Below, piece after piece: positions 13,169 to 47,304 of a DNA stretch of 64,000 bases. The translations under genes were made by a program, and so were the position numbers. Position 1 is the stretch's first letter, and each line of letters opens with the position of its first letter. The notes beneath the pieces were generated by a model that worked only from the letters and a program-made list of their open reading frames with translations, was not told where the DNA came from and did not search any database. Origin of the DNA: Deltaproteobacteria bacterium (GTDB lineage Bacteria > Myxococcota_A > Polyangia > Polyangiales > Houyiibacteriaceae); NCBI GenBank assembly GCA_017644045.1, contig JAEPMI010000002.1:259026-323025 (forward strand), given 5' to 3'.

Positions 13169-13936
13169 CTAGAACGCGGAGCGCGCACCCTCGAGGCCGA
13201 AGCCGAGGAGCTCCACGGTGTGGCCGCCGGCCTTGTCCCGGAACTTCACCATGCCCGTCACGGGCACGGCGGGGTGGTGCCAGACGTCGGCCTCGATCTG
13301 CTGGCCCGCGAACTCGAGGGTGGTCTCCGAACGGCGTGCGTCGGGGAAAGTGCCCGCCCTGACGGTCACCTCTTCGGGCTCGCCGCTCAGCGGTCCGGGA
13401 AAGAGCATCTGCAGCCACTGCGCGAGCACCGGCTGGTAGTTGGGCAGGAGCCGCTCCTGCACGTCTTCGCGAGGCTGCCCCTGCCGATGGAACGAGAGCG
13501 CGAGGAGCTCGACGTCATCGCCATTCGGTCGGACCTGCATGCGGACGTGGTTCTGGCGGTTGCCGCGGCGGTCGGTGACCTCGAACCACCAGGTGTCGTT
13601 CTGCCGGTCGACGAAGCGGTACTCGGTGGTTGACCGGGCGCCTTCGCGCCAGGTCACGCCGTAGCGAACCCACTGACCGATGGCGGGCGCGATCATCTCG
13701 GCGCCGTCTTCGGCGGGGTCGAAGAGGCGGCCCGGTTCTTCTGGTTCCGACTCCGACTCGGACGCCGACTCCGACTCGGACGCCGACTCCGACTCGGACG
13801 CCGACTCGGACGCCGACTCGGACGCCGACGCCGACGCCGACTCCGACTCCGACTCCGACGCCGACTCTTGGGCCGACTCCGACTCGCCGGAGCAGGCCAC
13901 GAGCAGCATCAGGATCCACGGCAGCGGCGCACGCAT
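13169..13936 (-). CDS. lipoprotein with (SE/SA)n linker, unknown function
   Basis: ATG at 13936. Lipobox LLVAC. About 40 aa of S-E/S-A repeats, then a globular domain. Confidence 0.75.
13747..13886. repeat. CCGACT/CCGACG/CGGACG hexanucleotide microsatellite (coding, in frame)
   Basis: Tandem hexamers are visible directly. They encode the SE/SA linker of the lipoprotein on the minus strand. Confidence 0.9.
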
Positions 13937-14005
13937 CGTCCACGCCCTACCACGCGATTCGCCGAAGCGCTTGCTGTGGCCGGGCGAGCATGACAGCAAT
14001 CGACC

Positions 14006-14950
14006 GTGGCATCGCTGAAGCACTTGGTGCGTGATTCATTGGCCTGGGGCCTCGAACGCACGGGTCTGACCGGGGCGAAGAAGCGAGCGTTGACCATCGC
14101 CACCTTTCACCGGGTCCTCCCGGCCGAGCTCCGCGCGACCTATCCCTTCCCCGGGTTGGCCGTCACTCCCGAGGAGCTGGACTTCTTCCTCACGTTCTTT
14201 CGGGCTCGCTACACGTGCGGGACCCTCGCCGAGAGCTGGGACCGCTTCCGCCGCGGCGACCGCCCGGAGCGACCGCTGCTCGCGCTGACCTTCGACGACG
14301 GTCAGCAGGACAACGTCGACCATGCGCTTCCGGTGCTCCGACGACACGGTCTGAAGGCGAGCTTCTACCTGCCGACCGACCTGATCGAAGAGCGGACGCT
14401 CATCTGGCACGACCGCGTCGGCTTTGCGCTGCGAGCGATGGGCGAGTCACCCGACGCGATCGCCGAGCGCACCGAGGCGCTCAAGCCGCTCGACCCCGAG
14501 CACCGCGAGGCGGAGGTCGACGCGCTCGAACGCATCGCGGGCGCGACGCCGCCCGAGTGGGCGCGGCTGATGACGTGGGAGGGCGCCGAGCAGCTCCTCA
14601 CCGAGGGCCACGAGATCGGCTCCCACTCACTGCGCCACCCACTGCTTCCGACCTGCAGCGACACCCGCCTGCGCGCCGAGCTCGTCGAGTCGAAGGCCGC
14701 GATCGAAAAGCGTCTCGGCATCCGGGTGCAGACTTTCTGCTACCCCAACGGCGACGCCGACGAGCGAGTCGCCGCTGCGACCGCGGCCGCCGGCTACGAG
14801 TGCGCGGTCACGACGACCTGGGGGACCAACCACCCCTCCGCGCCGCCCTTCCTGCTCCGCCGCTGCGACATGCACCCGTTCCATACGCGCGACCGCCACG
14901 GCATCCTGAGCTCGGCGCAGCTGCAGTTCCGGCTCTCCAGGCAGCTCTGA
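14006..14950 (+). CDS. polysaccharide deacetylase (NodB-homology) family protein
   Basis: [28 protein letters not shown] and HSLRHP motifs. Confidence 0.85.
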
Positions 14951-15185
14951 CCCAGGCTTCCATGGTCCCGTTGTGCCCTTGTTCTCGCACAAAGGCACGG
15001 GGAGCACGGAGTTTCACAAAGGGGTCGAATGGAGGTGGTTCGAGTCAGCGCTGACCGGGTCGACGACGACGCAGCGTTTCACATCACACCCGGCGCGATT
15101 CCACCCCTTCTTCCCTTCGTGTGACTTCGTGTTCTTCGTGCCTTTGTGCGAGAACAAGAGTCCAACGGGCACCGTGAAGCCTGGG
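14951..15185. repeat. 235-bp long imperfect palindrome (MITE-like element or bidirectional terminator)
   Basis: The 49-nt termini are inverted repeats: 14951-14999 versus the reverse complement of 15137-15185, 41/49 identical by hand alignment, including a perfect 21-mer TTGTTCTCGCACAAAGGCACG. The arms keep pairing further inward. The interior is less GC-rich than the flanks. Confidence 0.75.
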
Positions 15186-15200
15186 CAGCCTGGGGCAGCG

Positions 15201-16379
15201 TCAGCGAAGGGCAGCAAGGTGCGAGACCCGACGGTCGAAGCTCTTCTCGTAGGTGTGCTCGCGCGCGAAGCGGAGCGCCTCACGCGTCCGCTCGGCGAGG
15301 ATCGAGCGCTGGTGATGCGCTTCCTCGACGCGGGCTGCGAGAGCGTCGACGTCGCCGAGCGGCGCGCGCCAGCCCGCGGCGACGCGGTCGAGGATGCCGG
15401 CCCAGGCCTCGTTGGCGAAGCCGGCGATGGGGACCCCCGCGGCCATCGTCTCGAGGTAGGTGCAGCTCGGATCACCCTGCAGGTGCGGGCAGACGAAGAG
15501 GTCGACCTGCTCCTTCACGAAGGGCACGAGCTCGCTCTGGAAGTCGAGCACGCCGAGCATCTTCACCTGGCCCTCGAGGCCGCGCTCGGCGATCTCGGCG
15601 CGCATCTGCTCGGCGTCGCGCCCGTCGCCGCAGATGCTCATCTCGAAGGGCACGCCGCGGTCGCGCAGCGCCGACCCGAGGGCCGGCAGGTGCCGGGCGC
15701 CCTTCATCGGGTCGAGGCGGCCGGTGAACGCGAGCTTCAGCGGCTCTCCCGCGGCCACGCGCTTCAGCCGTGCCTCGAGCGCTGCGTCTCCGAGCACGTC
15801 CCGGTCGCGGGTTCGGGTATCGAAGAAGAGCAGCGTGTTCGGGTTCTCGGGCGCGTAGGCCTCGTAGGTCGGCGTGCCATTGCACTGCACGCCCGCCGCC
15901 GCGCGCACGGTGCGGAGGTTGGCTCGCTCCTGGCCCGCCTCCCACTGCTTCCGGCGCACGCTCTTGAGCCAGCCCACCGGACCCGGCTCACGATCGGCCT
16001 CCGCAATTTGGTAGCGCGTGGTGAGCGTGTACTCGCTGGTGGTCGCGAAGGGGACGCCGAGCTCGCGCGCCTTCTCGGCCAAGCCGTTCTGGCGATGACC
16101 GAGGCCGCCGAGGATCACGCCGGCGTCCGCCATGCGCCGATCGAAGGCCGCGCCCTCGAAGGGCAGCACCTCGAGCCCCCAAGCGAGCTCGCGGGGATCG
16201 ACGAGGGTGTCGTCGAGGTTCTCGGTGCCGCCCGCGCGTGGCTCCATGATCACGCGAACCGTTCCCTCCCAGCGCGAGGCGAACGCCTCGACCCCCGTGT
16301 GGAACTTCCCGGTCACGTTGATGGTCCCGTCCGCACGCTGCTCGGCGTTCAGCGAAGGCAGGAGCAACAGCTCGCTCAT
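15201..16379 (-). CDS. glycosyltransferase, GT4-like
   Basis: ATG at 16379 overlaps the rmlD stop (ATGA). C-terminal GT-B pattern LKLAFTGRLDPMKG...DLFVCPHLQGDPSCTYLETMAAGVPIAG. Confidence 0.8.
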   Translation of the reverse strand: MSELLLLPSLNAEQRADGTINVTGKFHTGVEAFASRWEGTVRVIMEPRAGGTENLDDTLVDPRELAWGLEVLPFEGAAFDRRMADAGVILGGLGHRQNGLAEKARELGVPFATTSEYTLTTRYQIAEADREPGPVGWLKSVRRKQWEAGQERANLRTVRAAAGVQCNGTPTYEAYAPENPNTLLFFDTRTRDRDVLGDAALEARLKRVAAGEPLKLAFTGRLDPMKGARHLPALGSALRDRGVPFEMSICGDGRDAEQMRAEIAERGLEGQVKMLGVLDFQSELVPFVKEQVDLFVCPHLQGDPSCTYLETMAAGVPIAGFANEAWAGILDRVAAGWRAPLGDVDALAARVEEAHHQRSILAERTREALRFAREHTYEKSFDRRVSHLAALR

Positions 16380-17236
16380 ACGGGCTCCAGCCGCGCCATC
16401 ACGTCGGCGACGTTGCGCCGCCAGTCCGTCATCGACCCGACGATGGCCTCCGCGCCGCTCAGGTCGAGCACGCTGTAAGGCGGCCGCTTCGCGGGGCGCG
16501 GGAACTCGTCGGTGGTGCACTTGGCGATGGCGCACTCCGCGCCCTGCGCGTCGCGCACCGCTTCGGCGAGCCCGTGCCAGGTGCACTCGCCGCCGTCGGT
16601 CACGTGGAAGGTGCCGCGGGCGCCCTTCTGGTAGAGCGCCCAGCTGGTGCGCGCGAGGTGCTCGGCGCTCGTCGGTCGACCGCGTTGGTCGTCGACGACC
16701 TTCAGCTCGTCGCGCTCGGCGGTGAGCTTGGCCATCGTGCGCACGAAGTTCTGACCCCAGGGCGCGTAGACCCAGCTGGTCCTGACGAGCAGGTGGTCGG
16801 CCCCCGACTCGCGCAGCGCCGCCTCACCTACAGCCTTGCTGCGCCCGTAGGCGTTGACCGGCGCGATCGGCGCGTCGACCGGGTACGGCTCGGGCTCCGC
16901 GTCACCGAAGCCGCTGCCGTCGAAGACGTAGTCGGTCGAGAAGTGGATCAGGGTCGCACCGGCCTCGGCGCACCGCTTGCCGATGACGCCCACGGCCTCA
17001 CCGTTGATCTGGGTCGCGAGCGTCTCGTTCTCTTCGGCGCCGTCCACGTTGGTGTAGGCGGCGCAGCAAACCACGACGTCGGCGCCGGCCGCGGTGAAGC
17101 GAGCGAGCGAGTCGGGGTCGGCGAGATCGAGGGTGTCCATACCCACCGCCGTCACCTTCACGCCCTCGTTCTCGAAGAGCTTGGTGAAGGCCGTGCCGAC
17201 CATCCCGTCGTGACCGATGAGGATCGCGTGGGTCAT
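16376..17236 (-). CDS. rmlD: dTDP-4-dehydrorhamnose reductase
   Basis: ILIGHDGMVGTAF...CAAYTNVDGAE...STDYVFDG, typical of RmlD. Confidence 0.9.
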   Translation of the reverse strand: MTHAILIGHDGMVGTAFTKLFENEGVKVTAVGMDTLDLADPDSLARFTAAGADVVVCCAAYTNVDGAEENETLATQINGEAVGVIGKRCAEAGATLIHFSTDYVFDGSGFGDAEPEPYPVDAPIAPVNAYGRSKAVGEAALRESGADHLLVRTSWVYAPWGQNFVRTMAKLTAERDELKVVDDQRGRPTSAEHLARTSWALYQKGARGTFHVTDGGECTWHGLAEAVRDAQGAECAIAKCTTDEFPRPAKRPPYSVLDLSGAEAIVGSMTDWRRNVADVMARLEPV

Positions 17237-17239
17237 CGC

Positions 17240-17821
17240 TCAGCCCACGTACTTCGGAAGCCGGGCCTCGTCGATGTCGGCCAGCTTCGGGTTCGCCAGA
17301 TCCTTGTCGCTGAGCACCGGGGTCACGGCCAGCGGCCACTCGATGCCGACGTCGGGATCGTCCCACGCCACGCCGAGCTCGGTCTCCGGGTGATAGAGGT
17401 CGGTGCACTTGTACGCGAAGATCGCCGACTCGCTGAGCACCTGATAGCCGTGCGCGAACCCCGGCGGTACCCAGAGCTGTCGATGGCTCACGGCGTCGAG
17501 CCGCGCCCCGACCCACGTTCCGAAGGAGGGCGAGCCGACGCGAACGTCGATGGCCACATCGAAGACCTCCCCCTCCACGCAGCTCACGAGCTTCCCCTGC
17601 CCGTGCGGCTCCTGCAGGTGCATCCCGCGGAGGATCCCCTGGCTCGACTTCGCCATGTTGTCCTGGACGAACTCGAGCGGCGAGCCATCCGGCGCCACAC
17701 CAACGCCCGCCTCGCGGTACCGCTCGACCTGGAAGGTCTCGACGAAGAAGCCGCGGTGGTCGCCGAAGACCTTCGGCTCCACGAGGATGACCTCCGGGAT
17801 GGCGAGCCGCTCGACCTTCAT
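17240..17821 (-). CDS. rmlC: dTDP-4-dehydrorhamnose 3,5-epimerase
   Basis: [12 protein letters not shown]...RGMHLQ...[10 protein letters not shown] motifs. ATGA overlap with the rmlA stop. Confidence 0.95.
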
Positions 17822-18693
17822 CCGTGCTCCGCGATCTCGAGCAGGTACTGGCCGTAGCGCGTCTTGTGCAGCTCCTGGCCGCGCGCCCGAAGCACGTCCG
17901 CACCGATCCATCCCTTGCGGAAGGCGATCTCCTCGGGACACGCGATCTGCAGCCCCTGCCGGTCCTGGACCGTCTGCACGAAGCTCGACGCCTGGAGCAG
18001 GTTCTCGGGCGTACCGGTGTCGAGCCACGCGACGCCGCGACCGAGCTTCTCGAGCCGGAGCTGCTGCTTCTCGAGGTAGAGTCGGTTCAGGTCCGTGATC
18101 TCCAACTCGCCGCGCGCGGAGGGTTTCAGCGCCTTCGCGAGCTCCACGACCTGGTTGTCGTAGAAGTAGAGCCCGGCCACCGCGTAGTTGCTCTTGGGCT
18201 TCGCCGGCTTCTCCTCGAGGCCGATCACGAGGCCGCTCTCGTCGAACTCCGCCACGCCGTACGCCGTCGGGTTCTGCACGTGGTAGCCGAAGACGGTCGC
18301 GCCCTCGTCGCGCTTCGCGGCGTCGACGAGCAGGCCCTGCAGGCCATGGCCGTAGAAGATGTTGTCGCCGAGCACGAGCGCGCAGGCGTCGCCGCCGATG
18401 AACTCCTCGCCGATGACGAACGCCTGGGCGAGTCCGTCGGGGCTGGGCTGCACGGCGTAGGAGATGTCCATCCCCCACTGCGAGCCGTCGCCGAGCAGCT
18501 TCTGGAAGAGCTCCGACTCGTGCGGCGTGTTGATGACCAACACCTCGCGGATGCCCGCCAGCATCAGCGTGCTGAGCGGGTAATAGACCATCGGCTTGTC
18601 GTAGATGCTCAGCAGCTGCTTGCTGACCGCGATGGTCAAGGGGTGCAGCCGGGTGCCGGAGCCGCCCGCGAGGATGATGCCCTTCTCGATCAC
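17818..18693 (-). CDS. rmlA: glucose-1-phosphate thymidylyltransferase
   Basis: [17 protein letters not shown]...[28 protein letters not shown] at 18693 overlaps the rmlB stop (GTGA). Confidence 0.95.
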
Positions 18694-19751
18694 TTCTCTC
18701 CCCCACGGTCGCCGTAGTTGGCTTCGATCCACTTCTTGTAGTCACCGCTGCGCACGTCCTGCACCCAGCCGTCGTTGTCGAGGTACCAGCGCACGGTCTT
18801 GCGCATGCCGGTCTCGAAAGTCTCCTTCGGCGTCCAGCCGAGGTCCTTCTCGATCTTCGACGCGTCGATGGCGTAGCGCATGTCGTGACCGGGGCGGTCC
18901 TTCACGAACTTCTTGAGCGCCAGGAGCGCCTCGGCGTCGCCGCCGGTCTCCTCGGCGACGAGCCGGCAGAGCGCGTCGACGACCTCGATGTTGGTCTTCT
19001 CGTTGTGCCCGCCGATGTTGTAGGTCTCGCCGACCTTCCCCTCGAGCACGACCTTCCAGATCGCCTCGCAGTGGTCGGTCACGTAGAGCCAGTCGCGCAC
19101 GTTGAGGCCCTCGCCGTAGATCGGCAGCGGCTTCTTCTCGTGGGCGTTGAGGATCATCAGCGGGATGAGCTTCTCGGGGAACTGCAGCGGACCGTAGTTG
19201 TTCGAGCAGTTCGTGATCTTCACCGGCAGCCCGTAGGTGCGGTGCCAGGCGCGGACCAGGTGGTCGCTCGCGGCCTTGCTCGCCGAGTACGGCGACGAAG
19301 GGTCGTAGGCGGTGGTCTCGTAGAAGAAGCCCTCCGCGCCGAGCGAACCGTAGACCTCGTCGGTGCTGACGTGGTGGAAGAGCTTGCCCTCGGTGTTCTC
19401 GCCCCAGAGCCCGCGGCACGCCTCGAGGAGGTTGAAGGTGCCCTCGAAATTCGTCCGCAGAAACTGCTTCGGCCCGAGGATGCTCCGGTCGACGTGGCTC
19501 TCCGCGGCGAAGTGCACGACCATGTCCGGCTCGTGCTTCGCGAAGGCGGCGGTGACCGCGTCGGCGTCGGTGATGTCGACCCGCTCGAAGGCGTAGTTGG
19601 GGGCGTCCTCGATGGGCGCCAGCGACTTCGGATTGGCCGCGTAGGTCAACGCGTCGATGTTCACGAAGCGATGCTCCGCGTGCCGAGGGACGAGCAGCCG
19701 GAGGAAGTTCGCGCCGATGAAACCCGCGCCGCCCGTGACGAGTACGTTCAT
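18690..19751 (-). CDS. rmlB: dTDP-glucose 4,6-dehydratase
   Basis: [16 protein letters not shown]...[15 protein letters not shown], a typical SDR dehydratase. Confidence 0.95.
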
Positions 19752-19849
19752 GTCGGGTGTCCTTCTACACTTGGACTGGTCTCACGCAAGGCAGCAATCG
19801 TTCATTCGGGGCACGGGACCCGCACCCAAACTCTGGTAGCTTGCTCCCC

Positions 19850-21892
19850 ATGAGGCGCTCCTTGGCCCTACTCCTGCTCCTCGCCGTGGCGTGCGGCGAC
19901 GACGACGGCGACGATCCCACCGAGGACGCGGGCACGGACATGGGCGAGGTGGTGCCCCCAGACATGGGGCCCGTCGTCCTCGAGCGGCCAGAGACCCGCG
20001 AGGCATGCGCCGACCGGAACCCCCTTCGCAACCCGTACTTCGGGGACCTGCACGTCCACACCCGCTACAGCTTCGACGCCGCGAGCTACGGCGTTCGGAC
20101 GGGGCCCGACGACGCCTACCGCTTCGCCAAGGGCGAGGCCATCGGGCTGCCGCCCTACGACGGCGACGGGAACCCGACCCGCATGGTCCAGCTCGACCGC
20201 CCGCTCGATTTCGCGGCGGTCACCGACCACGCGGAGCTGATCGCGGCGACCTCGATCTGCACCGACCCGACCAGCCCGGGCTACGACTCCTCGACCTGCG
20301 TCAGCTACCGCGAGGGCGACGGCGCCCAGGCCGACTTCGGCGAGTTCATCAGCGCCATCGGCCTCTCTCGACCGCTCCCGCCGACCATGTGCCGCCGCGA
20401 CCCCGATCTCTGCGCCGGCGAGCTCGCGGACGTCTGGGCGCTGACCGTCGATGCCGCAGAGACCCATGACGACCGGACCAGCGCGTGCGAGTTCAGCACC
20501 CTCATCGGCTACGAGTGGACCGGCGGCGCCGGCGGCGGCCGCAACCTGCACCGCAACATCTTCTTCCGCAGCTCGACCTACCTCGCGCGCCCGATCAGCT
20601 TCGTGGACGCCAACACCGCGGACGCGCTCTGGGACGGGCTCGAGGCGAATTGTCTGAACAGCGGCACCGACTGCGACCTGCTGGCCATCCCGCACAACTC
20701 GAACATCTCGACCGGCGACATGTTCTCGCCGCTCACCGAGGACGGCGATCCCTACGACGCGGCGTTCGCCGCACGGCGAGCGGCCCTCGAACCGCTGGTG
20801 GAGATCTACCAGCACAAGGGCGCGAGCGAGTGCGTCAGCGGCATCGACAACCCACTCGCCAGCGAAGACGAGCTCTGCGACTTCGAGTCGGTCTTCGAGG
20901 TCTACTGCGACGAGTCCGACGTCGAAGGCTGCGTCGAGCGCTGCGAGGCCGACGGCGCGGGTGGCTTCGTCGGAGCGGGCTGTGTGGCGGCCGGCGACAT
21001 GGTCCGCGGCGCGCTGAAGGTCGGGCTGCAAGAGATGCTGCGCACCGGCGCGAACCCCTTCCAGATGGGCTTCATCGCCAGCACCGACACCCACAACACG
21101 ACCGCGGGCGAGGTGCGCGAGGACGGTTGGCCCGGTCACACCGGTGACTCGGACGACGAAGCCGAAGAGGCCCTCGAGCCGCCGGTCGGCATCACGATCA
21201 GCGTGCGGACCTCGTCGCCCGGTGGGCTCGCGGTGGTCTGGGCCGAGGAGAACTCCCGGCCGGCGATCTTCGACGCCATGCGCCGCCGCGAGACCTATGG
21301 CACCAGCGGCACGCGCATCATCGCGCGCTTCTTCGGCGGCTGGGACTACGCCGCGGACCTCTGCGACGAAGCCGACGCGATCGAGACCGCCGATGGCAGC
21401 GGCGTCCCGATGGGCGGCGACATCGGCGCGCCCCCGACGGCGGGCGCGGCGCCGACCTTCCTCGTGAGCGCGCTGGCGGACGCCATGAGCGTGCCGCTTC
21501 AGCGCATCCAGATCATCAAGGGCTGGGTCGACCCGGTCACCGGCGAGCCCGGCGAGATGGTCTACGAGGTCGCCGGCGACCCCGAGAACGGCGCCGACGT
21601 CGACACGGCCACCTGCGAACCGACGGCGGGCAGCGACGCGGCGGGCTTCGGCTCGCTCTGCAACACCTGGACGGATCCCGACTTCGACCCGACCCACCCG
21701 GCCTTCTACTACGCACGCGTCGTGGAGAACCCCACCTGCCGCTGGAGCCAGCGGATGTGCGTCGACCTGGCGGTCGATTGTGGGACGATCGACCCGACCA
21801 CGAACATCGCAGCGGCGTGCTGCGACGGCGCGGTCCCGGCGAAGATCCAGGAGCGCGCCTGGACCAGTCCCATCTGGTACGTGCCGGAGTAG
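19850..21892 (+). CDS. DUF3604-like (PHP-type metal-dependent) lipoprotein
   Basis: ATG at 19850. Lipobox LAVAC. NPYFGDLHVHTRYSFDA signature. Confidence 0.75.
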   Translation: MRRSLALLLLLAVACGDDDGDDPTEDAGTDMGEVVPPDMGPVVLERPETREACADRNPLRNPYFGDLHVHTRYSFDAASYGVRTGPDDAYRFAKGEAIGLPPYDGDGNPTRMVQLDRPLDFAAVTDHAELIAATSICTDPTSPGYDSSTCVSYREGDGAQADFGEFISAIGLSRPLPPTMCRRDPDLCAGELADVWALTVDAAETHDDRTSACEFSTLIGYEWTGGAGGGRNLHRNIFFRSSTYLARPISFVDANTADALWDGLEANCLNSGTDCDLLAIPHNSNISTGDMFSPLTEDGDPYDAAFAARRAALEPLVEIYQHKGASECVSGIDNPLASEDELCDFESVFEVYCDESDVEGCVERCEADGAGGFVGAGCVAAGDMVRGALKVGLQEMLRTGANPFQMGFIASTDTHNTTAGEVREDGWPGHTGDSDDEAEEALEPPVGITISVRTSSPGGLAVVWAEENSRPAIFDAMRRRETYGTSGTRIIARFFGGWDYAADLCDEADAIETADGSGVPMGGDIGAPPTAGAAPTFLVSALADAMSVPLQRIQIIKGWVDPVTGEPGEMVYEVAGDPENGADVDTATCEPTAGSDAAGFGSLCNTWTDPDFDPTHPAFYYARVVENPTCRWSQRMCVDLAVDCGTIDPTTNIAAACCDGAVPAKIQERAWTSPIWYVPE

Positions 21893-21913
21893 GGAAGCCC
21901 GATCGGCGCCCGT

Positions 21914-22644: not shown

Positions 22645-22699
22645 GGCGGGGAAGCTACCGCAGGTGACGCGCCCCGAGTCGATCGCTATGCTCCGCACC

Positions 22700-22924: not shown

Positions 22925-22925
22925 G

Positions 22926-23621: not shown

Positions 23622-23637
23622 CTGCTACGCTCTCTGC

Positions 23638-31904: not shown

Positions 31905-32531
31905 TCAGTCCTCGACGCAGTAGCCGCCGCTGCAGCTGAAGCCCGCAGGGCAGCCCGAGCCACACGTCGGTCGCTCGCAGCCGACGGCGCCACACACGTA
32001 GGGCGGCGGGCAAACGGTGGAGTCACAGGACGAATCGATCACGCAGCCGCTGCTACCGCAGCGGAAGCCAGGAGCGCAGTCGGCCGCGGTCGTGCAGTCA
32101 CGGACGCAGGCACCGAAGGCGTTGCAGTCGGTCCCCGTCGGGCACGACGAGTCGTTGCATCCGATGCAGATGCCGCCCGGCGCCGAGAGGTTGCAGCTGC
32201 CGACCCCGCCGCAGTCGGCATCCGAGCGACACTGCACCGGCACGGGATCCGTCGTGGTCCCACCGTCGACCTCGGCGAACATGTCCGGCTCACGGAACAT
32301 GTCCGCTTCTTCGCCGCCGAGATCGGACTCGGTTCCGAGATCGGACTCGGTTCCCAGGTCGGACTCGGTTCCCAGATCGAGCTCGGTTCCGAGGTCCTGT
32401 CTCTCACCGCCGAGATCGACGTCCATCGACATGTCGCTCGCGGTGGCCATGTCCAACGGCTCGCGGCCGTCGTCGCCACAACCGAGAACGACGAGGAGAA
32501 GCAGAGTCAGCCAAGCTCGCATCCGTCGCAT
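31905..32531 (-). CDS. lipoprotein with DLGTES repeats and Cys-rich (myxobacterial-type) repeats
   Basis: ATG at 32531. Lipobox VVLGC. Four DLGTE(S/L) units, then CxxxxDCxxGxxC-type repeats. Confidence 0.75.
   Translation of the reverse strand: MRRMRAWLTLLLLVVLGCGDDGREPLDMATASDMSMDVDLGGERQDLGTELDLGTESDLGTESDLGTESDLGGEEADMFREPDMFAEVDGGTTTDPVPVQCRSDADCGGVGSCNLSAPGGICIGCNDSSCPTGTDCNAFGACVRDCTTAADCAPGFRCGSSGCVIDSSCDSTVCPPPYVCGAVGCERPTCGSGCPAGFSCSGGYCVED
32319..32396. repeat. 18-nt tandem repeat x4 (coding)
   Basis: GAGATCGGACTCGGTTCC twice, then CAGGTCGGACTCGGTTCC and CAGATCGAGCTCGGTTCC. Confidence 0.9.
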
Positions 32532-35350: not shown

Positions 35351-35364
35351 ATAGGGTCCGATCG

Positions 35365-36501: not shown

Positions 36502-36512
36502 TGCGCTGACCG

Positions 36513-37613: not shown

Positions 37614-37660
37614 ACCACACCCCCTCGGCGAGGCGCTCCGGTTCGGGATACGCTGCGCCG

Positions 37661-38245: not shown

Positions 38246-38296
38246 CCCGACCCTGCCCTTGCCTGCGGGTCGCACTCGCATCACACCCCCGGAGCG

Positions 38297-39265: not shown

Positions 39266-39820
39266 CCGCTCGGCCTCCGCCAGATCGGCGCTCGTGGCTC
39301 CTTCTCGCAGGTGGAGCTCGGGCACGAGCGAGTCGCCCTGCTGCCGGAGTCGGACCTCGAGCGCCGCTCCGGCGAGGGTCAGGCGGACCTCGTGACCGCC
39401 GTCGACCTGACCCACGCGAACGGAATGGAGCAGCCGCTCCGCCATCGCTGCCGCCTGGGCTCGCTCGAGCCCGGAGCCGGGAGCGGGCGCGGCCGACTCG
39501 GGGAGCGGCTGGAGCACGGGCATCGCTCGGAAGGGCTCGAGACCGGCGTTCTCGAGCGCCGATCCGTCCGACGACCGACGGCTGTGGGCTCTCTCACGGG
39601 GAATCTCGGGCGCGACCGCGCGGCCCTCGTCCTCCGCTCTCGGCCGGCGGGTCGGTCCTGCCGACGCCTCGGTCGCGGTGGGTGACAGACGCTTCAGCGT
39701 GTCGGCAAAGGGGTGGCCAGCGCGATGCTGACCCTTCGGGCTCGACCGATGATGCGAGGGCCCCCGAACGGGGCCCCTCGGGGTGCGGTGAGCGACTCGG
39801 ACGCCTCGGGGATTCGCCAT
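39194..39820 (-). CDS. hypothetical protein; C-terminus weakly FliK/YscP (hook-length control)-like
   Basis: 208-aa ORF with codon bias best in the C-terminal half (VRVGQVDGGHEVRLTLAGAALEVRLRQQGD...). Its 3' end overlaps the ctaA 3' end by 72 nt. Confidence 0.45.
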   Translation of the reverse strand: MANPRGVRVAHRTPRGPVRGPSHHRSSPKGQHRAGHPFADTLKRLSPTATEASAGPTRRPRAEDEGRAVAPEIPRERAHSRRSSDGSALENAGLEPFRAMPVLQPLPESAAPAPGSGLERAQAAAMAERLLHSVRVGQVDGGHEVRLTLAGAALEVRLRQQGDSLVPELHLREGATSADLAEAERLASRLDAELSRAGLDFDPIAILR

Positions 39821-39878
39821 GGCCCCTTCTTCGCGCCAGAAACCGCGCAGTTGCGTCCCATTCGTGTAAGCTCGCTCC

Positions 39879-41000
<1,122 letters not shown>

Positions 41001-41122
41001 GGCCTCCTCGCCGGAGCGATCCGGACCCAGGCTCTCGCACAGCGCTCGCCGCGACTCCATCTGCGCCCTCGCCTTGACGGCACCGGCTCCGATCGGCCAT
41101 ATCCCGCGCGAGCTTCAGCGCC

Positions 41123-42022
41123 ATGACCAGCCGTTCCGTTCCTCAGAGCGCCCCCGTCGCGACCCTTCGTGACCTCGCCTCCCTCGCCAAGCCCCGCATC
41201 ACCCTGATGGTGGTCATCACGGCGGCAGGTGGGATGTTCCTGGCCCCAGGGGCGATCCCCCTGACGACGGCCCTGGTGATGCTGCTCACCACAGCGACCG
41301 TGGTGGCCGGCGCGAACTCGCTGAACTGCTGGCTCGAGCGCGACTCCGACCGCTTCATGCAGCGGACGATGGATCGCCCGCTGCCCGCCGGGCGGATGGA
41401 GCCGAAGGTCGCGATGGTCTTCGGTGCCTCGCTCGGCCTCCTCTCGGTGCCGGCGTTGACGCTTCTGGTGAACCCGACCACCGGTGCCCTCGGGGCGCTG
41501 GCGCTGGTCTCCTACGTCGCCGTCTACACGCCGATGAAGCAGCGCTCGTCGGTGGCGCTCCTGGTCGGTGCGATTCCGGGAGCTCTGCCCCCGCTGATGG
41601 GCTGGACCGCGACCACCGGCTCGATCGACGCGCCCGGCCTGGTCCTCTTCGGCATCCTCTTCTTCTGGCAGGTCCCGCACTTCCTCGCGATCTCGATCTA
41701 CCGCCAGAGCGAGTACGAGAAGGCTGGCCTCAAGACCCTCCCGGCAGAGCGCGGTCTGGGTGCCGCGAAGGCCCAGGCCTTCCTCTACACGGGCGCGCTC
41801 GTCGTCTGCACCGTGCTCCTCGCCTTCTTCCGCACCGCCGGCGTCATCTACCTCGCCGCGGCCGTCATCCTCGGCGCGCACTTCCTCTTCGTGGCCGCCC
41901 AGGGCTTCCGCATCGAAGAGCGCCCTGCCGTCGACAAGTGGGCCAGGAAGCTCTTCATCACGTCGCTCATCTACCTGACCGCGCTCTTCGCGGCGCTGAT
42001 GGTCGACGCCATCGTCCTCTGA
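41123..42022 (+). CDS. ctaB: protoheme IX farnesyltransferase (heme O synthase)
   Basis: UbiA-fold protein with NCWLERDSDRFMQRTMDRPLPAGR and YTPMKQRS motifs typical of CyoE/CtaB. Confidence 0.9.
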   Translation: MTSRSVPQSAPVATLRDLASLAKPRITLMVVITAAGGMFLAPGAIPLTTALVMLLTTATVVAGANSLNCWLERDSDRFMQRTMDRPLPAGRMEPKVAMVFGASLGLLSVPALTLLVNPTTGALGALALVSYVAVYTPMKQRSSVALLVGAIPGALPPLMGWTATTGSIDAPGLVLFGILFFWQVPHFLAISIYRQSEYEKAGLKTLPAERGLGAAKAQAFLYTGALVVCTVLLAFFRTAGVIYLAAAVILGAHFLFVAAQGFRIEERPAVDKWARKLFITSLIYLTALFAALMVDAIVL

Positions 42023-42024
42023 CG

Positions 42025-42579
42025 ATGCGCTGGCTCGCGCTGGTCTCGATCGCGCTGCTCGGCTGCTCGGAGCCGGAGCCGCCGCCGACCCTGCTGGAGG
42101 TGCCGGCGTTCGAGCTGACCAGCCAGGCGGGCGACGCCTTCGGCAGCGAGCAGCTCCAGGGCGAGGTGTGGATCGCCAACTTCATCTTCACCCGCTGCCC
42201 GACCATCTGTCCGCTGCTCACCAGCCAGATGAAGGGGCTCACGGACTCGCTCGCCGACACCCCCGTTCGCTTCGTCTCGTTCAGCGTGGACCCGGCGAAC
42301 GACACACCCGCGGTCCTGACCGAGTACGCCGAGCGCCACGGCGCGGACACCGCGCGCTGGACCTTTCTGACCGGCGACAACCACGCGCTCCAGGACGTCG
42401 TGGTCGAAGGCCTGCGCGTCCGCATGGGCAACGAACCGGACGAGACCGGCAACATCCTGCACGGCAGCCACTTCGTGCTGGTCGACGGGACCGGGACGAT
42501 CCGCGGCTACTACCAGTCGAACGTCGAAGGGCTCCGCGACATCGCGACGGACGCCCGGACGCTCACCGACTCGCACTGA
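42025..42579 (+). CDS. SCO1/SenC copper chaperone lipoprotein
   Basis: Lipobox ALLGC. FIFTRCPTICP CxxxC motif and the conserved H in GSHFVLVD. Confidence 0.9.
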   Translation: MRWLALVSIALLGCSEPEPPPTLLEVPAFELTSQAGDAFGSEQLQGEVWIANFIFTRCPTICPLLTSQMKGLTDSLADTPVRFVSFSVDPANDTPAVLTEYAERHGADTARWTFLTGDNHALQDVVVEGLRVRMGNEPDETGNILHGSHFVLVDGTGTIRGYYQSNVEGLRDIATDARTLTDSH

Positions 42580-42586
42580 GTCAGCA

Positions 42587-42893
42587 CCGAGCCGAACGCC
42601 GAACGTCGAGCGCCGCGTCGACGGAGTCGGTCAGGAGTCGGCCGTCGGGGCTCGGAGTCGGCCGTCGGAGTTCGGAGTCGGCCGTCGGAGTTCGGAGTCG
42701 GCCGTCGGAGTTCGGAGTCGGCCGTCGGAGTTCGGAGTCGGCCGTCGGAGTCGGCGTCGGCGTCGGCGTCGGAGTTCGGAGTCGGAGTTCGGAGTTCGGA
42801 GTCGGCCGTCGGCCGTCGGAGTCGGCCGTCGGAGTTCGGAGTTCGGAGTTCGGAGTTCGGGGTCGGAGTCGGAGTTCGGCGTTCGGCGTTCGG
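42587..42893. repeat. array A: ~40 tandem 6-7-nt units ending in TCGG (non-coding)
   Basis: Hand parse from 42621: spacers AG, CCG, AGT, CG or CGT, each followed by TCGG. The 20-mer GGAGTCGGCCGTCGGAGTTC is perfect four times at 42654-42733, with near copies on each side. Three opposite-sense CCGA units at 42587-42605 precede a short palindrome. Confidence 0.95.
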
Positions 42894-43130
42894 CTCTGGT
42901 CCGTTCAACCACTGGGGATCTGGTCTTTCGTCGTGGCCGCAACAGTCGGAGGTTCCCAATGACGATCGATTCTCTCTCGCTCGACGCTGTTTCGGCGGTC
43001 CATGAAGACGTCATGCCGATGCTTTCGCGGGTTTACTTACCCCGACCCCCGGGGCAGCCTCAGATCAGCAGGACGAGCCAGCCCCTTCACCCCTTGCCGG
43101 AGGCAAGCCGATGCGAAGCGAGGCGACACA
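42894..43130. other. unique, less GC-rich core between the two arrays
   Basis: No tandem units. Contains GGAGG-N6-ATG (42959), the palindrome CCCCGGGG (43047-43054) and the hairpin CTTGCC-GGA-GGCAAG (43093-43107). Confidence 0.8.
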
Positions 43131-43374
43131 CCGAAGTCCGACACCGACTGCCGACTGCCGAACGCCGACTGCCGAGCGCCGACGCCGAACGCCGAACGCC
43201 GACTGCCGAACTCCGACGCCGAACGCCGACGCCGAACGCCGAACGCCGACTGCCGAACTCCGACGCCGAACGCCGACTACCGAACGCCGAGACCCGACGC
43301 CGAACGCCGACGCCGAACGCCGAGACCCGACGCCGAACACCGACTACCGAACGCCGACCACCGAGAGCCGACTA
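43131..43374. repeat. array B: 36 tandem 6-7-nt units beginning with CCGA (mirror image of array A, non-coding)
   Basis: Hand parse: CCGAACG, CCGACG, CCGACTG, CCGAACT, CCGAGAC and others. There is an exact 47-nt higher-order duplication (43179-43225 = 43226-43272). The array ends at the cpoB stop codon. Confidence 0.95.
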
Positions 43375-44220
43375 AGACGTGCAGGCGCTGCGCGGCGCCT
43401 GGTTGATCTGCCGCAGCTTCCGCCGCGCATCGTCCCGCAGCGGCGATCGCCGATGCCCGCGGATCAATGCCTCCAGCGCCGCCTTCGCGTCCGTGCATGC
43501 ATGGAGCTGGAAGAACGCGTCGGCCATGTCGAAGAGCGCCTCGTCGACGGCGTCACCGCTCGCGTAGTTGGTGATCACCCGGCGGAACTCCCCGAGCGCG
43601 TTCGCCGGCCGGCGCTCGAGCAGGTAGGCCTTGCCCACCCAGTACTGCGCGTCGTCGGTCTGGTCGTCCTCGGGGTAGCGGCGGATGAACTCGCGGAAGA
43701 GCGCGCGCGCCTGAGAGTGCTCGCCGGCTTCGATCGCACGGCGCGCCGCGGCGAAGTGCTCGTCCTTCCCGTCGGGGATCTGCGAGTCGTCGACCGCCAT
43801 GTCCACGCCGGCCTTCTGAGCGAAGCGGCGGATCTGGGCGTCGAAGGCCTGCTGCTGCTCGCCCATCTGGCGCTGGGTGTTCGCGAGCTCGTTCTGCAGC
43901 TCGGCGAGGCTGCCCTCGACCGCCTGCAGCTGCTCACGCAGCTGGATCACCTCGGTGCCGAGGTCCGCGCTGTTGCGCGTGACCACGGCGGTCGCCTGCT
44001 CGAGCACTTCTTGGAGCTCGGCGACCTTGGTCTCGGCGGTCTCGAGCGCCGCGTCCATGCGCTGGCGGGTCTCGGCGATGCCGGTCTCCAGGGCTTCCAG
44101 CCGCGCGTTCTGCTCGGCCAGCTTCTCCTCGAGCGCGTCCCCCTTGGCCTTTGGGTAGCAACCGCCGAGCGCGAGCGCGGCGGTCAACCCCAGGATCCAG
44201 TGCTGCGGGCGGGCGGTCAT
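43372..44220 (-). CDS. cpoB: Tol-Pal system protein CpoB/YbgF (coiled coil + TPR)
   Basis: ATG 44220 overlaps the pal stop (ATGA). Lipobox-like ALGGC, a long coiled coil, and a C-terminal TPR-like AQYWVGKAYLL...DEALFDMADAFFQL. Confidence 0.8.
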   Translation of the reverse strand: MTARPQHWILGLTAALALGGCYPKAKGDALEEKLAEQNARLEALETGIAETRQRMDAALETAETKVAELQEVLEQATAVVTRNSADLGTEVIQLREQLQAVEGSLAELQNELANTQRQMGEQQQAFDAQIRRFAQKAGVDMAVDDSQIPDGKDEHFAAARRAIEAGEHSQARALFREFIRRYPEDDQTDDAQYWVGKAYLLERRPANALGEFRRVITNYASGDAVDEALFDMADAFFQLHACTDAKAALEALIRGHRRSPLRDDARRKLRQINQAPRSACTS

Positions 44221-44873
44221 CGCTGAGTGAACGTGACCTTGCGGTCCTGCGCCCAGCCGGACTCGTTCTCGCCCGTGGCCATCTCCTCGCCGACCGAAGA
44301 GGCGGTGAGGTTGGCGCCGTCGACCCCGAGGGAGGTCATGAACTGCTTCACCGAGCGGGCGCGGCGGTCGCCGAGCGCGAGGTTGTACTCCTCGGTGCCC
44401 TGCGGGTCGGTGTAGCCGGTGAGGTGCATGCGGGTGATGTTCTGCTCGCGCATGCAGTTCACGTTCGACTGGATCTGGTCCCGGGTGGACGACGAGAGGT
44501 CGTCGCTGTCGAACCCGAAGTAGACCGTGTCGATGGTGCAGCCCTGTGCCGCGGGCTCGTCGGGCGGCGGCAGGTCGGTCGACTGCATCGCCACGCACTG
44601 GTTGTTCTGGCACTCCTGACCATCCGGGCAGTCCCCGGAGCCGGTGCAGTAGCCCTCGATCGGATCACACCGACCGCCGCGGCACTGCTGCCCAGCGGGG
44701 CAATCGCTGTCCTCGCGGCACTGCTGGCACTGTCCATTCACGCAGAATTCCCCTGCGTGACAGTCCTCGTCATCGTTGCAGTTAGGGTACTCCGGCCCAC
44801 ACGCGACGAGCGCGACAGCCGAGAGCATCCCGAGGCCCAACCAGAGATTTCGGGGTTCCATGTTCATCCTCAA
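44217..44873 (-). CDS. pal: peptidoglycan-associated lipoprotein (OmpA-like) with N-terminal Cys-rich repeats
   Basis: Lipobox ALVAC. Three DCxxGxxCxxGxC repeats. OmpA-like VYFGFDSDDL...LTGYTDPQGTEEYNLALGDRRARSV. Confidence 0.85.
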   Translation of the reverse strand: MRMNMEPRNLWLGLGMLSAVALVACGPEYPNCNDDEDCHAGEFCVNGQCQQCREDSDCPAGQQCRGGRCDPIEGYCTGSGDCPDGQECQNNQCVAMQSTDLPPPDEPAAQGCTIDTVYFGFDSDDLSSSTRDQIQSNVNCMREQNITRMHLTGYTDPQGTEEYNLALGDRRARSVKQFMTSLGVDGANLTASSVGEEMATGENESGWAQDRKVTFTQR

Positions 44874-44979
44874 CCGTGGCGCTACCCGTGCGCGATCCGG
44901 TTGTCAATGCGTGGGGCACCTGCCGGCATTTCGCCAGGGGTATGACCCGATCCGTTCTCATCGTGCCTCTTACAGTGGG

Positions 44980-47304
44980 ATGAGCCCCCACACACCCCAA
45001 TGTGCTACCCTCGTCCCTCCTCCCCCGATGAGCAGATTCGACGCAGGTCCCGACGGTCCGGTCACCGGGGACACCGAGATCTGCGCGTTTCACGCCCTCG
45101 AATCGGTGATCGCGATGCTGGCGAATACCCGCCGGCTCCTCGCTCTCGAGGTGGGCGCGTTGGTGGGGATGGAGCTCTGCGAGCGAGCCCTCGAGGGGAA
45201 CGCCATCGGCACCCACGCGGTCCAGATCGACGTGATCGGCCATCTCCGGGTGACCCGGGCCATCCGGCCCGACGACGGAGGCCTGCTCGAGACGCTGAAC
45301 GCGTGGGAACGGGCCATCCACCCCCGCGGTCGGGAGCAGTTCCGGCGAGCGCTCCGGGACACCCCGGCCTCGCTCCAGGGCCAGGACCTGATGCTCTTCC
45401 TCCGGGACCGCTTCGCGGGCCTCCTCTACCCCATCGACCGGGTCTCGGCGCGGACCAGCCTGGCGGGGGCCATCGAGCTCGCCTCGCGGGAGGCAGCGCT
45501 CCTCGACACCGGTAAGCGCGAGCGCGTCGACCCGGACGCTCCGGACTTCGACGACCTCTCCACCAGCCGCGGCATCGGTCCGGCGAGCGTGGAGCACATC
45601 CTCTCCGGCCTCGACGACTCGGTCTTCATGAACGCCGAGACCCGTCTGCGGGTCGAGGCCTATGGAGGTCCTGGCGCCCCGGACTTCGCCGACCTCACCA
45701 CCGACGAAGTCACCAGCGAGGAGCCGCACTCGCTCGAGGTCGCGCTGCTGGGGCCCTCGCCGAGCGAGGCACCGGTCCGGCAGGTCGGCCAGTTCGAGAT
45801 CTTCGGTCGCCTCGGCGAGGGAGGCATGGCGGAAGCCCTCCTCGCGCGCCACGTCGACGGGGGCGCCCCCTTCGTGCTCAAGCGCCTCCTTCCGGAGGCC
45901 GCGGCGGACCCCAGCCTCCTGCGGATGTTCGAGGACGAAGCGCGCCTCGGTCTCTTCCTGGACCACGAGCACATCGCCCGGGTGCTCGAGTACGTCCCGG
46001 GACCGCAGCCCCTGATGAAGATGGAGTGGGCGCCCGGTCTCACGCTGGCGAAGCTGATGAAGCGCTCGCGCGAGGCGAGCACCCCCATCCCACTCGACGT
46101 GATCCTGCGGGTCGGTGACGCGGTCAGCTCTGCCCTCGCCTACGCCCATGGCGCGCGAGGGATGGACGGGCGCCCACTGCGCGTCGTCCACCGCGACGTG
46201 AGCCCGCAGAACGTGGTCCTCCAGTGGGACGGCCACATCAAGCTGCTCGACTTCGGCGTCGCCCGGAGCGCGGTTCAGGCCGAGCACTCGGAGGCCGGCG
46301 TCATCAAGGGCAAGTTCGCCTACATGGCGCCCGAGCAGTCGCTCGGCATGCCGCTCGACGACCGCGCCGACGTCTTCTGCGTGGGCATCTGCCTCTACGA
46401 GGCGCTGAGCGGCAAGCGCCTCTTCGACAGCGACGAGCGGTTGGCGGCGGTTCGCGCGCTGGCCGAGGGCCCGATCCCCGACATCCGCCGGCACCGGCCG
46501 GAAGTCAGCGAGGAGCTCGCGACCCTGGTGCGCCGCTGCCTGGCCTCCGACCCGAAGAACCGTCCGCACATGGACGAGCTCCACGACGAGCTCCAGGCCC
46601 TCCGCCGCCGGCACCGCGCCCGTCGTCAGTCCGTGGTCGACATCGTCCGGACCTACGAGCCCGGCTGGGAGGACTGGCGCCGCGCGCTCTCGCCCACCGA
46701 CCGGCCGACGATGGCGCCGCCCGGCCCGGCACGGGAGCGGGGCAAACGAACGGAAGAGGGCCTCCGCCCGATCCAGCCGCGGGGCCCGAGTCTCTGGACC
46801 CGCATGTGGCCCGCGCTGCTGCTGATCGCGTCGTTCGTAGTCGGTGCCGCCACCTATGCGCTCATCCGCAGCGCGACCGCCCCCGACCCGGTTCCGGATG
46901 TGCCGGCGCCGGTCGAGAGCAGCCCGGTATCGATGCCGGCGTCCGTAACCGACTCCGACTCCGACTCCGACGACCGAGAGCCGACCGCCGAAGCCGACTC
47001 CGAAAGTCGAGCGCCGACTGCCGACCACCGAGAGCCGACCGCCGAAGCCGATTCCGAGAGCCGAGCGCCGACCGCCGAGGCCGAGGACGCCACGGGCACC
47101 CTCCTCATCCGCACCCACCCCCGCGGCGCGCGCGTCACGCTGGACGGAGTCCGACTCCGCGGCCGAACCCCCGAGCGCTGGACGATCCCTGCCGGGCCGC
47201 ACCGCGTTCAGATCTTCCGCGTGGGACACCGGCCGGAGACCCGTCACATCGTGACGGAGCCCGACAGCGGGGGGATGCTCGACATCCGGCTCCGTCGGCG
47301 TTGA
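44980..47304 (+). CDS. Ser/Thr protein kinase with TM segment, acidic repeat linker and C-terminal PEGA domain
   Basis: GEGGMAEALLA, VLKRL, HRDVSPQNVV, DFGVAR and APEQ. TM LWTRMWPALLLIASFVVGAATYALI. PEGA-like GTLLIRTHPRGARVTLDG...GPHRVQIFRVGH. Start is uncertain (ATG 44980 or 45028); the ORF-track start overlaps pal. Confidence 0.85.
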   Translation: MSPHTPQCATLVPPPPMSRFDAGPDGPVTGDTEICAFHALESVIAMLANTRRLLALEVGALVGMELCERALEGNAIGTHAVQIDVIGHLRVTRAIRPDDGGLLETLNAWERAIHPRGREQFRRALRDTPASLQGQDLMLFLRDRFAGLLYPIDRVSARTSLAGAIELASREAALLDTGKRERVDPDAPDFDDLSTSRGIGPASVEHILSGLDDSVFMNAETRLRVEAYGGPGAPDFADLTTDEVTSEEPHSLEVALLGPSPSEAPVRQVGQFEIFGRLGEGGMAEALLARHVDGGAPFVLKRLLPEAAADPSLLRMFEDEARLGLFLDHEHIARVLEYVPGPQPLMKMEWAPGLTLAKLMKRSREASTPIPLDVILRVGDAVSSALAYAHGARGMDGRPLRVVHRDVSPQNVVLQWDGHIKLLDFGVARSAVQAEHSEAGVIKGKFAYMAPEQSLGMPLDDRADVFCVGICLYEALSGKRLFDSDERLAAVRALAEGPIPDIRRHRPEVSEELATLVRRCLASDPKNRPHMDELHDELQALRRRHRARRQSVVDIVRTYEPGWEDWRRALSPTDRPTMAPPGPARERGKRTEEGLRPIQPRGPSLWTRMWPALLLIASFVVGAATYALIRSATAPDPVPDVPAPVESSPVSMPASVTDSDSDSDDREPTAEADSESRAPTADHREPTAEADSESRAPTAEAEDATGTLLIRTHPRGARVTLDGVRLRGRTPERWTIPAGPHRVQIFRVGHRPETRHIVTEPDSGGMLDIRLRRR
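46949..47088. repeat. CCGAC-type microsatellite plus 54-nt duplication (coding)
   Basis: CCGACT x3, then two copies encoding REPTAEADSESRAPTA. Contains the 20-mer GCCGACCACCGAGAGCCGAC (47020-47039), identical to 43353-43372. Confidence 0.85.

Follow-up and report, generated by a model that had tools for sequence, protein, structure and literature searches.

Inverted CCGA/TCGG tandem arrays between converging genes of a Deltaproteobacteria bacterium and their relationship to nearby coding repeats

The DNA studied here (hereafter, the window) is a 64-kb stretch of contig JAEPMI010000002.1 from a Deltaproteobacteria bacterium, with a GC content of 70.1%. Its intergenic block at 42587-43374, the main subject of this work, lies between the stop codons of two converging genes. 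On the + strand, the SCO1/SenC gene (42025-42579; Pfam PF02630, E = 2e-28; ortholog of 184 aa) ends with a TGA codon at 42577-42579. On the - strand, a gene at 43372-44220, whose stop codon occupies 43372-43374, encodes a 282-aa YbgF/CpoB-like TPR protein that Pfam and homologues assign to a Tol-Pal cluster and that is identical to MBO6934346.1, a protein from a metagenome-assembled genome (MAG) labelled Deltaproteobacteria bacterium. The block opens on the + strand with three units in CCGA orientation (CCGAGCCGAACGCCGAACG) and a small GC-rich palindrome (CGTCGA..TCGACG), together spanning 42587-42623. Array A (42620-42895), as delimited by Tandem Repeats Finder (TRF) and by a parse into units, comprises 39 units of 6-7 nt with TCGG on the + strand; in reverse complement its main units are CCGAACT, CCGACT and CCGACGG, and the TRF periods of 7, 13 and 20 nt include a higher-order period of 20 nt present in 12 copies. 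A unique centre of 235 bp (42896-43130, 62% GC) separates it from array B (43131-43374), made up of 35 units with CCGA on the + strand, mostly CCGAACG, CCGACG and CCGACTG. The TRF periods of array B are 7, 34, 47 and 81 nt, its higher-order period is 47 nt and its last unit overlaps the YbgF stop codon. The CCGA core is intact in 73 of the 74 units of both arrays, while the trailing 2-3 bases define 16 unit types. A preliminary description of the window, made from the sequence alone, had rightly reported 7-nt units in the intergenic arrays; it had missed that the two arrays are mutually inverted (126-nt arms, 75% complementary), as well as the unique centre and the setting between the convergent stop codons of SCO1/SenC and YbgF/CpoB.

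The 801-nt block folds into one giant predicted hairpin (-470.6 kcal/mol vs -383 +/- 11 for shuffles, z = -8). The fold energies of the centre itself are worse than those of shuffled sequences (z = +1.9 and +1.65). No promoter or terminator was found in the region of the centre, and a terminator scan of 42400-43600 returned zero sites. Rfam 15 gave only chance-level matches over 42500-43450 (E = 0.57-5, with bit scores far below gathering) and no tRNA. An open reading frame (ORF) at 42959-43375, which runs through the centre and array B, was considered as a possible gene and rejected: when it was searched against 1.84 billion representatives, the matches were restricted to its array-derived low-complexity tail (residues ~58-135), with none to the centre, and its GC content at third codon positions (GC3) is ~70% as judged by eye, vs ~89% in genes.

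Repeats of this kind could in principle be a product of base composition in a 70% GC genome, or of assembly. CCGAC and GCCGAC are among the commoner words of the window (CCGAC ranks 24th of 496 k-mers), and one scaffold carries a gap within array A. Moreover, outside the five clusters described below, the hexamers named by the preliminary description occur at background level in the window (observed/expected 0.87-1.23 under a maximal-order Markov model), and the z-scores from dinucleotide shuffles lie between -5.4 and +3.1 for words of 5 and 6 nt and at +5.5 for CCGA, without a consistent excess. The arrays themselves are another matter. Across the window, the mean per 120 nt is 1.46 copies for CCGA and 1.26 for TCGG, and densities of 8-19 copies per 120 nt, 10-fold above the mean, are reached at five sites only in 64 kb: array A, array B, the linker of a lipoprotein, a DLGTES repeat and the linker of a kinase. 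These correspond to the four objects listed by the preliminary description, all of which are there, each as a tandem array detected by TRF (13746-13886, 32317-32393, 42634-42893, 43139-43372 and 46949-47085). The periodic pattern (TCGGNNN)4TCGG has 10 matches in the window, one of them inside the kinase gene, vs 0.00 expected from shuffles. The composition-only explanation, which the preliminary description had named as a possible refutation, is consequently at odds with the arrays and in agreement with the dispersed hexamers: the window holds a handful of local tandem arrays, and a dispersed hexamer vocabulary or family is absent within it.

The assemblies point in the same direction. An ENA scaffold of the same organism (YANW21-1_SAMN17278188 scaffold_12; L250, reverse complement of 5821-6800) matches the whole block exactly but for 100 N, which fall inside the perfect 20-mers of array A (window 42620-42760), and a Logan contig (L251, 100% identity) ends inside array B, being identical over its outer 148 nt. 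Except in part of array A, these independent assemblies thus agree with the window at every base of the arrays and the centre. The arrays are real, and it is extremely improbable that composition or assembly alone produced them; this reading is largely refuted for the arrays and still true of the dispersed hexamer vocabulary.

The nearest other genome, GCA_964462035.1 (L001), is syntenic with the window over 6.2-21.9 kb and 34.4-54.2 kb, with 83-89% DNA identity, and more distant homologues come from MAGs of Polyangiaceae and Myxococcota. Intergenic CCGA arrays occupy one locus in the 64-kb window and none in 41 kb of this closest sequenced relative. The SCO1/YbgF junction could be followed in ~8 related junctions, mostly on short metagenome contigs; identities below refer to YbgF amino acids compared with the window unless DNA is stated. 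In L124 and L125 (69% and 65%) the stops overlap or are 14 nt apart. L253-255 (~92%) have a spacer of ~130 nt with an A-type arm only, which is oppositely oriented (the YbgF-sense strand reads CCGA) and preceded by a GTCGG-tagt-CCGAC mini-hairpin. L002 and L003 (90% and 84%) have a B-type arm only, built of CTCGG units and 165 nt long in L002. L001 (96%) has at this position a 555-aa DUF2330 gene (L001 10962-12629) and no array; a tblastn search for a remnant of that gene in the intergenic block of the window found nothing. Finally, L252 is 97.8% identical to the window at the DNA level over 2.2 kb; this homology ends at the YbgF stop, and the junction has a 3' remnant of SCO1, most of which has been replaced, and then 41 nt made up of two TCGG, a 12-nt loop and two CCGA. 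This spacer is predicted to form a hairpin of 13-14 bp (-20.5 kcal/mol, z = -2.75). The junction thus measures 792 nt in the window vs 41 nt in L252, between flanks that are 97.8% identical. Across close relatives its length, orientation and unit sequence all vary, and what remains constant is the position and the CCGA/TCGG core. With the DUF2330 gene in L001 and the replacement of most of SCO1 in L252, the junction is a rearrangement hot spot.

The interpretation that we favour, and consider probable, is that the block at 42587-43374 consists of two hypervariable arrays of tandem CCGA/TCGG units (6-7 nt), comparable to variable-number tandem repeats (VNTRs), that form the arms of an inverted repeat between converging stops, and that the coding repeats are separate from it with the exception of the kinase linker. 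In that case, the starting point would have been a short GC-rich hairpin at the convergent junction, with arms that already read TCGG...CCGA, similar to a terminator without a U tract. Each arm would then have grown independently by slipped-strand mispairing or unequal recombination, and multi-unit blocks, of 20 nt in array A and 47 nt in array B, would have been amplified later. The arrays would probably be near-neutral, and any function would rest with the stem-loop and not with the copy number. That these repeats change rapidly, as the preliminary description proposed, is borne out by the junctions of 41 to 792 nt; slippage as the mechanism, expansion from a short hairpin as the direction and near-neutrality are what we infer. 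The relatives would provide a natural series for the growth of a short inverted repeat between converging genes, from abutting stops, by way of the 41-nt hairpin and arrays on either arm alone, to the ~800-nt state with arrays on both arms.

Several points weigh against this interpretation. The CCGA core is kept while the tails vary, yet the neutral decay of heptamers should break the core too, which hints at a constraint (the pairing of the arms, or a binding factor) or at mutation biased to the unit junctions. The unique 235-bp centre is not accounted for, as slippage does not turn a loop of 12 nt into 235 bp. With ~8 related junctions, expansion and collapse are not polarised by phylogeny. 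How many perfect 20-mers array A contains is assembly-dependent. Lastly, the kinase linker has four unit types in common with array B, and its ortholog in L001, where the array is missing, has none (see below), as real exchange would predict.

The distribution of similar arrays was surveyed more widely. In representative genomes, the listed matches to (TCGGNNN)4TCGG are generic pure heptamer microsatellites from many phyla, uninformative on the CCGA family. In metagenomes, a mixed 7-6-7-6 CCGA spacing, searched with the CCGA core only, has at least 120 matches, mostly in high-GC contigs. A classifier of array context based on GC3 phase was discarded since it misjudged the coding linkers of the window itself, and a stricter test based on ORF ends was substituted for it: among the metagenome matches listed, many arrays begin no more than 60 nt from where a well-supported ORF stops. 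Contigs L164, L175 and L146 contain further inverted array pairs. In L175 (851-1200), a ComM/Mg-chelatase-like gene ends at 851 and, one base on, a TCGG array is followed by a CCGA array, forming a palindromic pair of ~350 nt; this is a second example of the architecture of the window, minus the large centre. In L146, a metagenome contig of 4.1 kb, terminal inverted repeats of ~300 bp (1-300 and 3880-4133) each consist of a CCGA array and then a TCGG array; a Pfam search of its inner ORFs was empty, and it may be either an element or an assembly palindrome.

An alternative that gives weight to the giant predicted hairpin is that the inverted arrays are a selected functional element of tunable copy number: either a very long stem-loop acting in both directions, with termination or insulation of the converging transcripts or stabilisation of their 3' ends as its effect, or a row of sites for a protein that binds CCGA/TCGG. 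The block does lie exactly between the convergent stops, the sense strand of both upstream genes (SCO1/SenC and YbgF) reads TCGG there, the short state of L252 is a hairpin as well, similar array pairs directly follow gene stops in the unrelated contigs L175 and L164, and the conservation of the core next to variable tails would be expected of such an element. Nevertheless, the length varies from 0 to ~800 nt among close relatives with the same flanking genes, several of which lack the second arm or any array; the orientation relative to YbgF flips among lineages and is unbiased in the metagenome set (17 CCGA to 14 TCGG among the matches listed); and the block has no U tract and zero sites in the terminator scan. 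We therefore regard a selected function as possible but rather unlikely. A more specific idea, that GGA motifs in array A act as a CsrA sponge or resemble Shine-Dalgarno sequences, was dropped because array B and the arrays of the relatives lack a consistent GGA.

The block could also be interpreted as a small non-autonomous mobile element, or as the scar of an insertion, in which the 235-bp centre would be the cargo and the arrays the terminal inverted repeats. Inverted arms do enclose a unique centre at a junction prone to rearrangement, and the inverted array pairs at both ends of L146 recall such a design. Yet the centre has no homologue or second copy in the window or in the relatives, and a 26-mer of it, sought in metagenomes for strain-level copies, had zero matches. 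Inspection of the flanks revealed no target-site duplication, the arms do not mirror each other (their units and higher-order periods differ), and the single-arm and mini-hairpin states of the relatives fit growth in place. A mobile origin is thus very improbable, and a miniature inverted-repeat transposable element was rejected on the same grounds: inverted arms are present, but the centre is single-copy in the window and relatives, and the flanks are without visible target-site duplication.

Among the coding repeats, the most closely related to the arrays is found in a Ser/Thr kinase gene (45028-47304, + strand) in which Pfam and the translation recognise, in this order, a kinase domain, a transmembrane helix (46804-46866), an acidic linker and a PEGA domain. 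The linker between the transmembrane helix and the PEGA domain (46945-47088, + strand) is built of CCGA units of 6 and 7 nt. The preliminary description had stated that units in genes are strictly of 6, 18 or 54 nt; in reality the 54-nt unit of the kinase strings 6- and 7-nt units together, 10 of the 19 units being 7 nt long, so that CCGA occurs in all three codon phases and the frame is kept only by the 54-nt sum. In this sense the proposed filter for frame in genes is upheld, as the summed length of the linker stays in frame. The core is preserved by means of rare codons: CGA four times (all four Arg; 11% of Arg codons), AGT (3%), ACT (3%), GAA and GAT. The significance of this enrichment was assessed with codons redrawn according to the codon usage of the window. 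As the copies of a tandem repeat are not independent of one another, resampling a whole linker overstates significance, and a per-unit test was substituted: each 54-nt unit has 7-8 cores vs 3.1-3.3 +/- 1.3 expected (P = 0.0025 and 0.0003).

The kinase ortholog of L001 has a different linker, a cleanly in-frame 21-nt repeat coding for (EEPTAEA)n, and the alignment of both linkers at the DNA level requires compensating gaps of 5 nt and 1 nt, neither of them a multiple of 3. In such arrays, each frame of the CCGA strand contains 0-1 stops and encodes P, T, A, D, E, S and R, and it is because all frames of this strand are nearly stop-free and code for these residues that frame-shifted patches are tolerated in the linker. 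At the DNA level, the kinase linker evolves as an array of CCGA-N2-3 units whose lengths add up to a total in frame, and of the three in-gene repeats it is the only one that shares the DNA structure of the intergenic arrays. Units of 6 and 7 nt would have been gained and lost, the survivors being the versions whose sum restores the frame. The kinase gene itself lies within a Tol-Pal-type cluster (window 44220-54230) with ExbB/TolQ, ExbD/TolR, TonB_2/TolA-like, TolB, OmpA/Pal and YbgF/CpoB genes, an arrangement conserved in relatives (e.g. L001 1-10849).

The preliminary description had also noted that a 20-mer, GCCGACCACCGAGAGCCGAC, is shared by array B (43353-43372) and the kinase linker (47020-47039). 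The match is indeed exact at both sites, and dinucleotide shuffles produce 0 matches. This null, though, does not keep the vocabulary of units: when only their order is shuffled, a shared match of at least 20 nt appears in 9% (array B), 11% (kinase linker) or 3% (both) of cases, and in 13-21% of cases with Markov-generated arrays. Given these probabilities (P = 0.03-0.11 and 0.13-0.21, respectively), the 20-mer is unsurprising and follows from the shared unit vocabulary; it gives no further weight to exchange, contrary to its earlier use as evidence for a family. For comparison, the longest exact match between arrays A and B is 19 nt.

These data bear on the strong form of the original model, namely that coding and non-coding repeats are one recombining CCGA family in which gene conversion or template switching connects array B with the kinase linker 3.65 kb away, the non-coding arrays serving as a reservoir that remodels the linkers of surface proteins. 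Besides the exact 20-mer, this scenario draws on the 7-nt periodicity and rare codons of the kinase linker, on the fact that the short-read contigs of relatives break in both the kinase linker and the junction array, and on shared units: four 7-nt unit types (CCGACCA, CCGACTG, CCGAGAG and CCGAGCG) are common to the window's linker and array B, whereas the ortholog of L001, whose genome has no array, has none in common and the kinase fragment of L003, whose genome has one, has two. On the other hand, the match stops at 20 nt and is reproduced by nulls that preserve the vocabulary (P = 0.03-0.2), an overlap of four types is only mildly unusual given a GC-biased pool of ~64 possible 7-nt units, the lipoprotein and DLGTES repeats take no part, and the comparison covers three genomes, which are too few to separate exchange from coincidence. 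Exchange between array B and the linker therefore seems unlikely. A broader version of this idea, which we hold to be quite improbable, would see CCGA-N2-3 arrays as frame-robust raw material: non-coding arrays born from hairpins would be copied into, or exchanged with, extracytoplasmic linkers, and the conserved core would be due to a real constraint, for example the pairing of the arms or a factor that binds or nicks the DNA. If it were true, it would amount to a lineage-specific (myxobacterial) mechanism that makes linker diversity from non-coding repeats, possibly at the PEGA kinase 3.65 kb away.

The other two coding repeats fall outside the CCGA array family. The first belongs to a lipoprotein gene (13169-13936, - strand; 255 aa) whose translation begins with a signal peptide and the lipobox LLVACSG; a Pfam search found no family match, and its homologues share the lipobox and the C-terminal domain. 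Its acidic SE/SA linker (13747-13886, - strand) reads GAG TCG / GCG TCG on the coding strand, with a period of 6/12/18 nt that TRF and the codon view show to be in frame. The codon null reaches the core count observed in one ESESAS unit with P = 0.10. All the homologues have an acidic low-complexity stretch at the position of the linker, the sequence of which is hypervariable, and the total length stays at 238-255 aa within the same clade. In the lipoprotein linker of one relative (L248 10058-10177), GDRESESE is written GGC GAT CGG GAG TCG GAG, so that the TCGG core is found in a second codon phase by way of the rarer Asp codon GAT, an echo of the phase-switching in the window's kinase linker. 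The second repeat, DLGTES (32317-32396, - strand; 18 nt in 4.3 copies according to TRF), lies in a gene for a Cys-rich secreted protein or lipoprotein (31905-32531, - strand), as indicated by its translation and homologues. It corresponds to a protein-level xDLGxx motif that is conserved in relatives with 2-3 copies vs 4-5 in the window, where it has recently expanded. Against the codon null, the repeat as a whole has P = 0.09 and the single unit 0.20, and the longest exact match with the arrays is 8 nt, not above that of codon-resampled controls. The strands and frames of the lipoprotein and DLGTES repeats also differ.

Both are ordinary in-frame coding repeats, for which the peptide and GC3-biased codons suffice. 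CCGA and TCGG arise automatically in them because a 70% GC, GC3-rich genome writes Ser, Thr, Ala or Pro followed by Asp or Glu as NCC-GAS, CCG-ANN or TCG-GNN. Hence, the single family of four objects envisaged by the preliminary description is reduced to the kinase linker and the intergenic arrays (per-unit P = 0.10 and 0.20 for the lipoprotein and DLGTES). In all three coding objects, the repeat forms an acidic, disordered linker in a secreted or membrane protein; each sits in an open frame, and its repeat content differs among close relatives. The suggestion that such repeats drive linker length variation stands as far as repeat content and sequence are concerned, while length itself varies only modestly, as the lipoprotein homologues illustrate.

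The arrays can be compared with several known kinds of bacterial repeats. They share with VNTRs and simple sequence repeats (SSRs) the arrangement of short units head to tail, the higher-order blocks, the large differences among close relatives and, taking the coding repeats into account, the location, either non-coding or in frame inside genes of surface proteins. In Burkholderia pseudomallei, SSRs are abundant and serve multiple-locus VNTR analysis (MLVA) for typing, and this species and B. savannae have pure arrays of CCGAACG, a main unit of array B. These (CCGAACG)n arrays are annotated as (RTPNAER)n hypothetical proteins (P0114, P0121 and P0129), one of which carries the name '60S ribosomal protein L19'; such entries are annotation artefacts of stop-free repeats. 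Unlike typical VNTRs and SSRs, the window arrays have 16 unit types on one core, mixed lengths of 6 and 7 nt and inverted arms around a unique centre, and the differences observed are those between relatives. Even so, they have the defining features of the class: copies arranged head to tail, differences between relatives and coding copies that stay in frame.

Heptanucleotide repeats of other bacteria offer a more distant comparison. Cyanobacteria reportedly contain short tandemly repeated repetitive (STRR) heptamers, said to have been described by Mazel et al. in 1990. In Beggiatoaceae, intergenic TAACTGA heptamers lie mostly just upstream of start codons (PMC4679880). Both resemble the window arrays in being intergenic heptanucleotide tandem repeats without an established function, and differ from them in being dispersed over many loci with a near-invariant unit, whereas the 64-kb window has a single intergenic locus, on the 3' side of genes and with variable units. 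With their 16 unit types of mixed 6/7 nt, the window arrays do not qualify as near-invariant heptamers.

For the lipoprotein linker, the closest parallel is provided by the Ser-Asp dipeptide-repeat linkers (Sdr/Clf) of Gram-positive surface proteins. The lipoprotein has the same architecture, that is, a lipobox, (SE/SA)n and then a conserved domain, and in both cases a fast-evolving stretch of repeated acidic dipeptides, written in the DNA as a 6/18-nt repeat, lies between an export signal and a folded domain. The phylum and the proteins are different, the dipeptides are SE/SA and not SD, and the length is roughly conserved, so that this is an architectural analogy and not homology.

Hairpin-forming elements resemble the intergenic block to varying degrees. 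In intrinsic terminators, a U tract follows a short GC-rich stem-loop. Like bidirectional terminator hairpins, the block is a GC-rich inverted repeat exactly between converging stops, and the L252 stem has 13-14 bp; unlike them, it has no U tract and no match in the terminator scan, its arms are ~250 nt of tandem units and its loop measures 235 nt. Repetitive extragenic palindromic (REP) units are imperfect palindromes of 20-40 nt, present in hundreds of dispersed copies and linked to REP-associated tyrosine transposases (RAYT). Together with the bacterial interspersed mosaic elements (BIME) and REP doublets (REPIN), they are extragenic, often located between convergent genes and organised in inverted pairs able to form hairpins, as is the block; nevertheless, the latter consists of 6-7-nt units in tandem, and no dispersed copies were found in the window. 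A clustered regularly interspaced short palindromic repeats (CRISPR) array, whose repeats of 23-50 nt are separated by unique spacers of similar size, was rejected since the units are 6-7 nt long and contiguous.

Overall, the locus is a case of ordinary bacterial repeat instability, unusually well documented, and no new kind of system. It illustrates that a coding linker can evolve as DNA units of 6 and 7 nt come and go, where it is only their sum that restores the frame. It also illustrates that such arrays break short-read assemblies and yield fake low-complexity proteins, (RTPNAER)n among them, so that the repeat copy numbers of MAGs are not trustworthy.

Elsewhere in the window, two adjoining long tandem repeats at 56454-56967, with periods of 33/66/99 nt and 51 nt and 88-89% matches, have a vocabulary unlike that of the CCGA arrays (ACCGTCACCACGCGCCC... 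and GCGGCAACAACGCCAGC...), and the ORFs that overlap them have no convincing Pfam family. A tRNA gene at 54245-54318 is the sole Rfam match in the window at gathering score.

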